A program made the position numbers and the translations under genes. From positions 1,799 to 65,798 of the IMG/VR virus record IMGVR_UViG_2924810865_000002: a DNA stretch of 64,000 bases; one strand, given 5' to 3'. Positions 50,925 to 59,565 of this stretch are shown here, piece by piece; the stretch's first letter is position 1; every line of letters starts with the position of its first letter. Source of the DNA: a virus. Its lineage: Duplodnaviria; Caudoviricetes. Under the pieces are notes generated by a model. That model did no database searches, had not been told where the DNA came from, and was given only the letters and a program-made list of their open reading frames with translations.

Positions 50925-51413
50925 ATGCTAGATAAAAAGTTTATAGCCTACTTAATAAGTGACATTATCATTTCTCTGTTACTTACTATATTATTAACAG
51001 ATATTATTATAAAAAGTACTGATGCCATGAACTTAATTGCAAGTACATTTTCTATTTTATCTGGTGTTGTTTTAATGATATTAACAACAGTAGGTGAATT
51101 ATTTCTGTTTTCACCTAACGATAGTAGTGCAAAAAAAATAGCAAAATATAAGAACTTTGAAACTAGATTTTCAAGGCTATCATTATTATTTATCAGTTAT
51201 CTAATTATTTTAGTTCTCATCTTGATTTATTATCTTATTAAAGATATTAGTCAAGATGTGATCACTTTTAAAATAAGTGAGCTTACAATCAACCTCCAAA
51301 ATTGGACAGCTTACTTAATTATACTTTTTTCTTTCTTCTGGTTTATTATATCAATTTGTTTACCTTGGATATATAAACAACTTTTGAAAGAAAAAAATGG
51401 TATTTATGATTAA
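50925..51413 (+). CDS. Small multi-pass membrane protein
   Basis: Four hydrophobic segments; starts 2 nt after the upstream stop. Confidence 0.8.
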   Translation: MLDKKFIAYLISDIIISLLLTILLTDIIIKSTDAMNLIASTFSILSGVVLMILTTVGELFLFSPNDSSAKKIAKYKNFETRFSRLSLLFISYLIILVLILIYYLIKDISQDVITFKISELTINLQNWTAYLIILFSFFWFIISICLPWIYKQLLKEKNGIYD

Positions 51414-57046: not shown

Positions 57047-57891
57047 ATGACAAACCAAGTTCAACAAACCAAACCGCAACAAGACAAATTCCCGATTAAA
57101 ACCTTGTTTGAAAGCCCCGCGGTAAAACAAAAACTACAAGACTTGCTTAATAAGAATGCAGCAAGTTTCACAACTAGCGTACTTCAAATTGTGAATAGCA
57201 ACTCAATGCTGCGTAATGCCGATCCGATGAGCGTATTTAACGCCGCTTGTATGGCAGCCACTTTGCAGTTACCGATTCAAAATGGTTTAGGCTTTGCCTA
57301 CATCGTGCCTTATAACGGGCAGGCTCAATTCCAACTAGGCTATAAAGGCTTAATCCAACTGGCACAGCGTTCTGGGCAGTTTAAGCGATTGGTTGCAGTT
57401 CCCGTGTATGAAAAGCAACTTATCGAAGAAGACCCGATCAACGGCTATGTGTTCGACTGGAAACAAAAGCCAGAACCGACTGAAAAGCCAATTGGCTACT
57501 ACGCTTATTTCCAACTGGTTAATAGCTTTACCGGGCGAAGAGTGTGTGGGCAAATAACTTTGAGGCGATGGCGTTGAAAACGGTGATGAAGCTCCTGCTC
57601 TCAAAACAAGCACCATTATCGGTGGAAATGCAACAAGCCCTGTTAGCCGATCAAGCGGTGGTAAAAAGCGTGGAGAATGCAGAATTTGATTACCCTGATA
57701 ATCAAGTGGAAGAAGCGGATTTTGTAGCGTTGAATGTATCGGATGAGCAATTTGAAAACTTCAAACAAACCATTCAAAACAAAGAAACCACGCTCCAAGA
57801 GCTTTGTGATAACGGCTACGAATTCAGCAAAGAACAGTTCCAAATTTTAGAGGCAATGGAAAATGCAGCACCTGTATCAAATGAAAGCTAG
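57047..57891 (+). pseudogene. recT: RecT recombinase with internal deletion and frameshift
   Basis: GLGFAYIVPY...AQFQLGYKGLIQLAQRSGQF, break near 57530, resumes WANNFEAMALKTVMKLLLSKQAPLS. Confidence 0.88.
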
Positions 57892-58534
57892 ATGCTCAAT
57901 GCTACATCGCTTAATCGGTGAGCCGAAAACGAAAGCCGACCGAGAAGCGGGCAAAATTACCGACACAGCAAAATCTGCCGTGCGAGAAATTGCCAAGTTC
58001 GACCTCTTCGGCTGGCAACAATTCGAAGGCAATAAGTTCACCGAAAAAGGCTTAATGCTAGAAAATGAAGCGATCAAACTCAGCGGCTTAAAACGGGGCT
58101 TACCACTCAAAAAGAACATCGAAAGACGAGAAAACGATTGGATTACGGGCGAGTGCGATATTTATGTGCCCACCCGTAAGCTGATTATCGACACCAAATG
58201 TTCCTTTGATATTGGCACACACCCGTTCTTTGCTGATGAAGCGGAAGACAAAGCTAAAAAAGCAGGCTACGACATTCAAATGCAAGGTTATATGTGGTTG
58301 TGGGATTGCGAAGAGGCACAAATTGATTTCGTGCTTTTCCCTACGCCAGAAGAGCTATTAGGTTATGGACAATCAGCAGAGCGTTATATCGATTTAGTCG
58401 AACAAATCCCCCAACACCAACGCATCACCACCGTTACCATTAAGCGAGACGAACAAATCATCAAAAAAATCCAAGAGCGTGTGAGTGCTGCTAAAACCTA
58501 TTATGATGATTTGATTAAGCAGATGGTGAGTTAG
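57863..58534 (+). CDS. YqaJ/lambda-exonuclease-like nuclease
   Basis: KGLMLENEAI...TGECDIY...IIDTKCS...YDIQMQGYMWL, adjacent to recT. Confidence 0.8.
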   Translation: MQHLYQMKARCSMLHRLIGEPKTKADREAGKITDTAKSAVREIAKFDLFGWQQFEGNKFTEKGLMLENEAIKLSGLKRGLPLKKNIERRENDWITGECDIYVPTRKLIIDTKCSFDIGTHPFFADEAEDKAKKAGYDIQMQGYMWLWDCEEAQIDFVLFPTPEELLGYGQSAERYIDLVEQIPQHQRITTVTIKRDEQIIKKIQERVSAAKTYYDDLIKQMVS

Positions 58535-58703
58535 TCTTCAACATCTCAACCGCCTGAATAATCAGTTGGTTCTGAGGAATACCCCGCTCACGGCTTAATT
58601 GCTCAATATCTGCAATCACTGCGAGCGGTAACTTAAACGCCTTGAGTTTAATCCCGTGTTTTTCCTCAGAGCGTTTCACAATTTCGGTTCTTGACAATGC
58701 CAT
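58515..58703 (-). CDS. Ribbon-helix-helix DNA-binding protein
   Basis: IKLKAFKL beta strand then IEQLSRERGIPQNQLIIQAV; AAGGA RBS. Confidence 0.75.
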   Translation of the reverse strand: MALSRTEIVKRSEEKHGIKLKAFKLPLAVIADIEQLSRERGIPQNQLIIQAVEMLKTNSPSA

Positions 58704-58860
58704 AATAAATCCTTAGTATTGGTTTTGAAGAGTAGGAGGATTTCTCCCCCTACTTAGTTGCATTCAATTAGTAAGCCGGCAAGCTAATCACTAAGAGAAT
58801 GATAACTAGGATAATGCGGTAAAGCATAGGTTATCCCTCCAAAAGTTGGGGGGATTAAAG
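58691..58860 (+). ncRNA. Sib-like antisense RNA with its promoter
   Basis: TTGACA-17-TAGTAT (58691-58719); transcript begins with hairpin AGTAGGAGGATTTCTCCCCCTACT and covers the peptide ORF and RBS. 3' end uncertain (about 58860 or terminator at 58947-58974). Confidence 0.65.
58768..58827 (-). CDS. ibs: Ibs-like type I toxin peptide (19 aa)
   Basis: MLYRIILVIILLVISLPAY versus recalled IbsC MMRLVIILIVLLLISFSAY; GGAGG RBS; promoter TTGATT-17-TATAAT at 58933-58905. Confidence 0.82.
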   Translation of the reverse strand: MLYRIILVIILLVISLPAY

Positions 58861-58946
58861 GTCGCACCCAGCTCGTTTTCAACAGTATTGCTGAAAACAG
58901 GATTATTATAGATTAGTTAACTAATTAAATCAAGAACCAATTCATT

Positions 58947-58974
58947 AAGCCATCGTTTTTACGGTGGCTTTTTT
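58947..58974 (+). terminator. Rho-independent terminator
   Basis: AAGCCATCGT-TTTT-ACGGTGGCTT followed by TTTT. Confidence 0.8.
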
Positions 58975-59028
58975 ATTGCCTAAATGCCCTCCTCGTGAGG
59001 GCTTTTTTGTACCTAAAGGAAACCAAAA

Positions 59029-59565
59029 ATGACACAGAAAAAATACGAATTGCTCAAAAACGATACTATTACCGCACCAAACGGAAAAACACTCTACCGC
59101 ATTAAAGCCCTTATTGATTTTGGTGTAGTTTTAGCTGGCTCTCTCGGTGGCTATATCGAAAAAGAAGATAACCTAACTCATACTGGCAATGCTTGGGTGT
59201 ATGGTGATGCTCGGGTGTATGGCAATGCTCGGGTGTCTGGTGATGCTCGGGTGTATGGCGATGCTGAGGTGTATGGTGATGCTCGGGTGTATGGTGATGC
59301 TCAAGTATCTGGTGATACTCGGGTTTCTGGTAATGACGATCTAGTTTGGTTCTCAAATGTTGGAACGGAGCAAGGCACACTTACGGTTTATAAATCCAAA
59401 GATGATTCATTACTTGCTACTCGTGGTTGTTTTAGTAGAACGGTCGATGAATTTTTAGCGAAATCAGCAAAAGTTCACAATGAACGAGTCAAACGAGAAT
59501 ACCAGTTACTCATTGAAGTTGCAAAATCTCGCCTTCTTGGAGAAAGCTATGTACCTAACCTTTAA
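59029..59565 (+). CDS. Phage protein with hexapeptide G(D/N)ARV(Y/S) repeats
   Basis: KKYELLKND...LYRIKAL...GGYIEKEDNL; eight 18-bp units at 59185-59328. Confidence 0.85.
   Translation: MTQKKYELLKNDTITAPNGKTLYRIKALIDFGVVLAGSLGGYIEKEDNLTHTGNAWVYGDARVYGNARVSGDARVYGDAEVYGDARVYGDAQVSGDTRVSGNDDLVWFSNVGTEQGTLTVYKSKDDSLLATRGCFSRTVDEFLAKSAKVHNERVKREYQLLIEVAKSRLLGESYVPNL

Follow-up and report, generated by a model that had tools for sequence, protein, structure and literature searches.

An Ibs/Sib-like type I toxin-antitoxin locus linked to a ribbon-helix-helix gene and a candidate operator in a Haemophilus-type prophage

The window analyzed here comprises 64,000 nucleotides (nt) of a Caudoviricetes provirus (IMG/VR record IMGVR_UViG_2924810865_000002). 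Close to one end it contains, on the minus strand, an open reading frame (ORF) for a 19-amino-acid (aa) Ibs-like peptide followed by a gene for a 62-aa ribbon-helix-helix (RHH) protein, and, on the plus strand, a promoter for a predicted Sib-like antisense RNA. The locus is very probably an Ibs/Sib homolog, that is, a toxin-antitoxin (TA) system of type I, and the RHH gene is likely to be a functional part of the same module. The three-part layout recurs in Pasteurellaceae, in Moraxella, and in Gilliamella; besides the antisense RNA, it probably brings the toxin promoter under the control of a protein. The features of the cassette, listed in the direction of the toxin gene, are the following (SD, Shine-Dalgarno sequence; UTR, untranslated region):

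58986..59008, plus strand: second terminator
58947..58976, plus strand: intrinsic terminator in the Sib direction, with a 10-bp stem, five GC pairs, and a T-run
58933..58905, minus strand: toxin promoter P(ibs), TTGATT-17-TATAAT, 10/12 consensus matches
58912-58925, minus strand: putative RHH operator, a perfect 14-nt palindrome, ATTAGTTAACTAAT, in the P(ibs) spacer
58828..58898, minus strand: ibs 5'UTR of about 70 nt, with a 5' hairpin (58898-58875) and an SD-masking hairpin (58855-58833)
58840-58835, minus strand: ibs SD, GGAGGG
58827..58771, minus strand: ibs-like ORF, 19 aa, MLYRIILVIILLVISLPAY; stop codon at 58770-58768
58815-58807, minus strand: internal anti-SD, AUUAUCCU, in ibs codons 5-7
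58731..58754: GC-rich hairpin, AGTAGGGGGAGAAATCCTCCTACT, separating ibs from the RHH gene, predicted to form the 5' stem-loop of the Sib-like RNA
58726..58976, plus strand: predicted Sib-like antisense RNA, both ends predicted
58691..58719, plus strand: antisense promoter P(sib), TTGACA-17-TAGTAT, 10/12 consensus matches, covering the RHH SD, ATG, and codons 3-5
58703..58518 (58515 with the stop codon), minus strand: RHH gene, 62 aa; SD AAGGA at 58714-58710

An earlier note, made from the letters of the window, had described these elements, and all of them are present where it placed them. The ibs-like ORF had escaped the program-made ORF list, whose minimum was 20 aa. The toxin promoter, which the note had called consensus, is near-consensus (with TTGATT as its -35); the perfect palindrome reported for its spacer is there, as is the opposing TTGACA-17-TAGTAT promoter. 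The RHH gene lies 3' of the toxin gene on the same strand, and the -35 of P(sib) falls within its codons 3-5, again as described.

P(ibs) and P(sib) converge from about 170 nt apart and would give a toxin mRNA and a fully complementary antisense RNA, the arrangement of a type I TA system at the level of sequence. The position and 17-nt spacing of P(ibs) are also found in related loci. We place the start of the Sib-like RNA about 7 nt past the P(sib) -10; its 3' end would lie either near 58900, at the complement of the 5'UTR hairpin and a U-rich tract, or at the terminator ending at 58976, which is probably its outer limit. This terminator, just 5' of the toxin promoter, may also insulate the cassette, and a comparable hairpin sits ahead of the toxin promoter in most related loci. 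The hairpin at 58731..58754 has no U-tail on the sense strand and is thus not a terminator there.

Homology upholds the Ibs/Sib identity proposed in the earlier note. The Rfam model SIB_RNA (RF00113) matches 58691-58841 (+) over model positions 1-147 of 147 (45.2 bits, E 5e-7), antisense to ibs and in register with its reading frame. The alignment takes in the promoter, the GGAGGAUUUCUCC hairpin, and UAGUAAGC, the complement of the Tyr-stop codons; the hairpin at 58731..58754 aligns to the conserved SIB_RNA hairpin, and in relatives its stem is kept with different sequences. The 19-aa peptide matches the Pfam family Ibs_toxin (PF13956; E 0.0064, 16.9 bits) and is the sole match to that family in the 65.8-kb provirus record (E 0.0023). 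An identical peptide is present in Mannheimia phage 587AP2, and the Ibs hallmarks (...ILLV.S.PAY) are conserved at the amino-acid level across divergent DNA. Passages of Fozo et al. 2010 (PMC2887945) list Ibs homologs belonging to this peptide family for Haemophilus and Histophilus, where a genome can have several copies (one in H. influenzae 86-028NP, seven in H. somnus 2336), the Haemophilus homologs having been accepted by PSI-BLAST. Those passages report the peptides and their duplication, with no downstream RHH gene, operator, or phage context. Since Ibs was already counted in Haemophilus there, the TA part of the cassette is a diverged member of a known family and no discovery in itself; Ibs/Sib, called hidden in the earlier note, is not hidden knowledge for these bacteria.

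The leader of the predicted toxin mRNA is structured. The ibs SD is sequestered, as had been claimed: GGAGGG is paired in the minimum-free-energy fold, within the hairpin at 58855..58833 (z -3.8 and -4.5). This C-run hairpin is peculiar to the present subtype; what is conserved instead is a pairing of the SD with ibs codons 5-7, found in most relatives as GGAUAA with UUAUCC, while in the H. influenzae type both sides change together (GGAAAAU with AUUUUCC). The window keeps this in-ORF partner of the SD as well (58815-58807). Ten relatives that were folded have the same leader plan, in which a 5' hairpin at +1 is followed by another hairpin and by a paired SD; the two-hairpin 5'UTR architecture is kept despite different sequences. 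In Moraxella, the palindrome GGTAAGATGG..CCATC was considered as an operator and rejected: it turned out to belong to the 5'UTR, as its second hairpin, with the real promoter further upstream.

The predicted Sib-like RNA is strongly structured (fold z -5.3), and the placement of its promoter is a family-wide property. In all 55 unique loci (55/55) the best antisense promoter, scoring 8.5-12 of 12, overlaps the RHH start region, with its -35 at nt 8-13 of the RHH ORF or over the RHH SD; throughout the family, one stretch of DNA thus serves both as the RHH translation start region and as the antitoxin promoter. In these loci the promoter starts 32-83 nt past the ibs stop codon, just before the conserved hairpin, at a distance of 35-46 nt in Pasteurellaceae-type and about 65 nt in Moraxella-type loci.

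A survey of the co-occurrence of ibs and the RHH gene, proposed in the earlier note, was strongly positive, and RHH genes almost never lack an Ibs-like ORF upstream. With one genome taken per species, 39 RHH loci were found in Pasteurellaceae, Gilliamella, and Moraxella, of which 37 are preceded, on the same strand, by an Ibs-like ORF; of the other two, one is a frameshifted copy and one a deletion in A. seminis that joins the leader to RHH codon 21. The same ORF precedes the RHH gene in essentially all of 80 additional IMG/VR loci, where the apparent exceptions are variant peptide endings, an A. seminis-type deletion, and a contig end. Of the 119 RHH loci in total, nearly all have the ORF. 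The distance between the two genes is 58-120 nt in genomic and viral loci, always on the same strand.

The linkage was also approached from the RNA side, with a model (R1) built solely from the SD-ibs-hairpin segment and searched against 151 Pasteurellaceae genomes. RNAalifold returned no consensus pairs on the Sib-strand alignment because the hairpin arms are out of register, and R1 is therefore sequence-only. It found 131 ibs/sib loci in 60 of the 151 genomes; 68 are directly followed by the first RHH family, and 68 of the 78 RHH genes in these genomes (87%) lie directly behind an ibs/sib match. Among 40 of the remaining loci that we inspected, about 13 have a different protein of 70-79 aa (MANAMTEHSKKLRAKTA...) in the RHH slot. 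This protein is itself an RHH protein (RHH-2), with profile matches to CopG, NikR, ParG, and DinJ in the PDB, and hhalign aligns it to the first RHH family with a probability of 81% (E 1e-5). About 20 of the 40 are stand-alone and E. coli-like; several adjoin tRNA genes, and some are visibly decayed cassettes. Stand-alone loci such as L132, L154, and L156 have a tRNA gene at a distance of about 130 nt (read as a spurious ORF, MAEWTGLEPATPCVTGRYSNQLNYHS) and may be remnants at phage attachment sites. Locus L142 retains the N-terminal part of an RHH (MSINEI...) as a remnant, along with a degenerate operator, TTCGG.

The cassette is carried by unrelated phage backbones: it follows Q in the lambda-like Mannheimia phage 587AP2 and lies beside int in the P2-like phage PHL101. 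The depositors of PHL101 had annotated the same upstream promoter for ORF49, about 200 nt ahead of it, and the resulting 200-nt "leader" (L002, 2652-2880) contains a Sib promoter and an Ibs ORF (MFKYIILVVFLLVLSSPAY) that went unannotated. In Histophilus somni DSM 23850 (L127, G002:C8:29900-32500), three ibs/sib cassettes are arrayed in tandem at intervals of about 480-560 nt; each has its own downstream RHH gene, and the two RHH families alternate along the array. The genome of Pasteurellaceae bacterium Macca contains twelve cassettes (L008-L017, L040, L041), ten of them near-identical over a stretch of about 1.25 kb that runs from 450 nt ahead of the RHH start to 800 nt past it; these ten adjoin phage recombination-type genes, which suggests many related prophage copies or fragments, and one copy (L017) has frameshifts in both ibs and the RHH gene. 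In A. seminis (L038, L086), the deletion fuses the 5'UTR hairpin region to approximately RHH codon 21; ibs and P(sib) are gone, the palindromic promoter is kept, and the RHH protein is N-terminally truncated and toxin-less.

The RHH protein matches phrog_3887, "transcriptional regulator" (E 1.8e-28), and its 57 homolog clusters are all about 60 aa long and, where the source gives a name, are called CopG-family RHH proteins. Its closest genomic relative is in a metagenome-assembled genome of H. parahaemolyticus (L005), consistent with a Haemophilus host. An AlphaFold2 model (pLDDT 75) has an N-terminal helix, an extended segment at residues 17-26, and helices at 27-40 and 44-58, the beta-alpha-alpha fold, in prediction, of the ribbon-helix-helix (CopG/Arc/MetJ) superfamily. 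The top Foldseek matches, all of them weak by E-value, are CopG (TM 0.72, root-mean-square deviation 1.8 A), Arc, AmrZ, PutA, and NikR; as Arc appears only among these weak matches (E about 3), no kinship to it is indicated beyond the fold. The Pfam RHH_1 match reaches 14.5 bits against a cut-off of 20.5, and searches of NCBIfam and PADLOC gave nothing useful for the RHH protein. No ORF follows the RHH gene on its strand, the next gene being a convergent exonuclease gene, which sets the locus apart from a type II TA system. We searched for a usable sense promoter or sense terminator between ibs and the RHH gene and found none, and we infer that the two genes are co-transcribed. The sole promoter match for the RHH gene itself, TTCAAA-16-TATTAT, was rejected, as its -10 ends past the ATG and cannot serve the gene.

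The palindrome in the P(ibs) spacer has the properties of a candidate operator. Palindromes in the spacers of RHH loci are variations on T-N-R-G N4 C-Y-N-A, and perfect inverted arms of at least 6 nt occur in 50% of 40 unique RHH-locus spacers as against 6% of shuffles; nine unique stand-alone spacers are at background (mean arm 4.1, compared with 3.7 for shuffles). The 64-kb window contains one exact copy of ATTAGTTAACTAAT, and a search of it for further copies gave only near-matches at chance level (10 with at most 3 mismatches, 6.0 +/- 2.4 being expected). An operator unique in the window fits an autoregulator. The best match outside the cassette, ATCAGTTATCTAAT at 51192-51205, downstream of cI, has 2 mismatches and is within chance expectation.

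The class of the palindrome tracks the class of the RHH protein and not that of Ibs. Operator and RHH classes have an adjusted mutual information of 0.19 (p 0.017); for operator and Ibs classes, although ibs lies physically between the two, the value is -0.05 (p 0.86). A partial Mantel test of operator against RHH that controls for the middle segment gives r 0.23 (p 2e-4). The half-site TCGG pairs with K-S-Y in the predicted DNA-facing RHH strand across three Ibs classes, TTAG with [LV]-K-[AS]-F-K-L-P across at least six, and TTGG with KLHEST or Q20. The association is also visible in mosaic cassettes: the window and 587AP2 have identical Ibs peptides and near-identical leaders, with operators of the TTAG and TTGG type, respectively, and RHH residues that differ from position 26 on, while the window and the H. 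parahaemolyticus locus have the same operator and RHH protein with different ibs/sib cores. The comparison supports protein autoregulation through the spacer palindrome.

Several observations weigh against this reading of the cassette. Both family matches lie under the curated cut-offs (45 bits against a gathering score of 56 bits for SIB_RNA, 17 against 27 bits for Ibs_toxin), and about one quarter to one third of the ibs/sib loci in Pasteurellaceae function, or at any rate survive, with no RHH gene. The RHH beta-strand is near-invariant (G-I/V-K-x-K-x-F/Y-K-L) though the operators differ, so the specificity code of the protein is not clear. The TAGG class pairs with several strand variants, which leaves no clean residue code; a one-residue code, linking position 20 or 22 to half-site base 2 or 3, was tried and fails for this class. 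There is also a correlation between the operator and the segment in between (partial r 0.35). The relatedness of the sequences makes the operator statistics optimistic, and Mantel tests are prone to over-calling in such material. Moraxella-type spacers contain a direct TAGGC repeat and no palindrome, and the AT-rich spacers of RHH-2 loci raise the palindrome background.

Taking these points together with the evidence above, we favor, with moderate confidence, a type I TA system with a co-transcribed, Arc-like autorepressor. It would form a self-contained, three-component cassette that lies in the early recombination region of a Haemophilus-type prophage and runs counter to transcription there. 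A strong P(ibs) would yield one mRNA with the 70-nt structured leader, the 19-aa Ibs membrane toxin, the hairpin, and the 62-aa RHH protein. Intramolecular pairing would mask the ibs SD, so that the primary transcript would be poorly translated. P(sib), built into the RHH ribosome-binding site and first codons, would produce a structured antisense RNA complementary to the ibs ORF and leader, which, by analogy with E. coli SibC/ibsC, could block translation and trigger decay. RHH dimers would bind the P(ibs) spacer palindrome and repress their own operon, much as P22 Arc does at Pant; the supply of toxin mRNA would thus be capped by a protein encoded on that mRNA. The biological role may be prophage maintenance or exclusion.

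In one rival explanation, the RHH protein is an ordinary phage regulator with targets elsewhere, in whose leader ibs/sib is an uncoupled hitchhiker. PHROG and the depositors do name it a transcriptional regulator, the cassette is always within prophage DNA, and the site at 51192-51205 is operator-like. We nevertheless consider this explanation unlikely, as 87% of the RHH genes adjoin ibs/sib, two distant RHH families occupy the same slot, the cassette occurs in unrelated phage types, both lambda-like and P2-like, and the sole exact operator is in the promoter of the cassette itself. The RHH protein might also act on the cassette in another manner, by controlling P(sib) or by switching between the two promoters. 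The embedding of P(sib) in the RHH translation start region at every locus and the convergence of the promoters would suit such a role; the palindromes, however, are located in the P(ibs) spacer, and neither the window nor 587AP2 has an operator-like repeat at P(sib), so that we regard this as quite unlikely.

Two further explanations concern the nature of the gene products. It is very unlikely that the 19-codon ORF is no longer a toxin and serves as a leader peptide or structured leader tuning the RHH gene, with the antisense RNA regulating RHH: stand-alone ibs/sib loci encode the same peptides without an RHH gene, the Ibs hallmarks are maintained across divergent DNA, and SD sequestration with full antisense cover is typical of toxin control, even if the ORF always precedes the RHH gene in one predicted transcript and the A. 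seminis variant retains the promoter and a truncated RHH gene in the absence of ibs. RHH proteins are numerous among type II antitoxins, the RHH-2 family bears a weak resemblance to BrnA, and MazE and VapB RHH domains are in the Foldseek list. Still, for a 62-aa protein that has no C-terminal toxin-binding tail and whose gene is followed by no protein toxin gene (a convergent exonuclease gene stands there in the window, and a terminator 3' of the RHH gene in PHL101), a role as an orphan antitoxin of type II-like character, or as a protein antitoxin that targets Ibs directly, is highly improbable.

With E. coli ibs/sib (IbsC/SibC) the cassette shares a 19-aa hydrophobic peptide ending in ...IS.xAY, an antisense RNA (predicted in the cassette) that overlaps the toxin gene fully, starts from a TTGACA promoter, and has the conserved GGAGGAUUUCUCC 5' hairpin, and the possibility of tandem arrays, exemplified here by H. 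somni. Unlike E. coli ibs/sib, it is prophage-borne, scores under both curated cut-offs, has a co-oriented and apparently co-transcribed RHH gene downstream with the Sib promoter inside its start region, and has a putative palindromic operator in the toxin promoter. In the P22 immI region (Pant-arc-ant), the RHH repressor Arc autoregulates a strong promoter through an operator between its -35 and -10, and sar, a small antisense RNA, has its start where the second cistron begins and extends backward across the intercistronic region. The cassette would resemble immI in RHH autorepression at a spacer operator combined with an antisense RNA from the start of the second cistron; unlike in immI, the effector comes first and the RHH gene second, and the effector is a predicted membrane toxin and not an antirepressor. 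Type II TA systems with RHH antitoxins (CcdA, ParD, RelB, CopA) likewise encode a small RHH protein with a toxin and have a promoter-overlapping palindrome, implying negative autoregulation, whereas the cassette lacks a protein toxin partner and a toxin-binding tail, and its toxin is expected to be neutralized by RNA. LexA-controlled type I systems (tisB/istR-1, symE/symR, dinQ/agrB) combine a protein repressor with an antisense RNA. Their repressor is a host global regulator encoded elsewhere, while that of the cassette would be dedicated and encoded on the toxin mRNA.

Type I TA systems are usually described as two-part, RNA-controlled modules, in which a protein repressor, where one is involved, is a host global regulator such as LexA. 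Our literature searches found no paper coupling ibs/sib to an RHH protein or to any dedicated repressor, in line with the earlier note, which knew of no description of the coupling; absence from the literature searched is not proof that none exists. A DNA-binding protein apparently encoded on the toxin mRNA, with a start region that doubles as the antitoxin promoter, is a layout conserved across three bacterial families. If the proposed model is correct, the dedicated repressor would set toxin-promoter activity and the antisense RNA translation, a natural circuit that layers transcriptional feedback onto antisense control. Such a cassette offers a testable case of how mobile elements silence a lethal peptide on entry and during lysogeny. 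For annotation, the consequence is that a small prophage gene of this kind, labeled CopG-family RHH or "transcriptional regulator", in many cases flags an unannotated toxin gene.

More tentatively, it is possible, though we would not yet expect it, that Ibs-Sib-RHH is a distinct and widespread three-component TA class of Pasteurellaceae, Moraxella, and Orbaceae prophages, with diversified operator/RHH classes acting as "immunity groups". Candidate groups would be TTAG, TTGG, TCGG, TAGG, and the AT-rich type of RHH-2. Groups of this kind would allow several cassettes per genome without cross-repression, as in the twelve copies of the Pasteurellaceae genome and the mixed arrays of H. somni, and the specificity classes might mediate prophage addiction or the exclusion of incoming phages. 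The naturally diversified candidate operator/repressor pairs would also be a resource for the study of RHH specificity.

The cassette is oriented opposite to both of its neighbors, the exonuclease gene (57863-58534; phrog_5715), whose end at 58534 is overlapped by the 3' end of the RHH gene, and a gene at 59029-59565. The latter, directly after the two terminators of the cassette, encodes a 178-aa protein with GDARVYG-type heptad repeats; its matches are to the beta-solenoid repeat of YdcK (E 2e-10) and to a family without known function, phrog_7964. On the other side of the exonuclease gene, RecT is seemingly split: the ORF at 57047-57577 (176 aa) matches positions 2-127 of 198 of the RecT profile, and a second ORF at 57544-57891 (115 aa) continues in another frame. 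The segment 57047-57891 could be a frameshifted recT or two genes.

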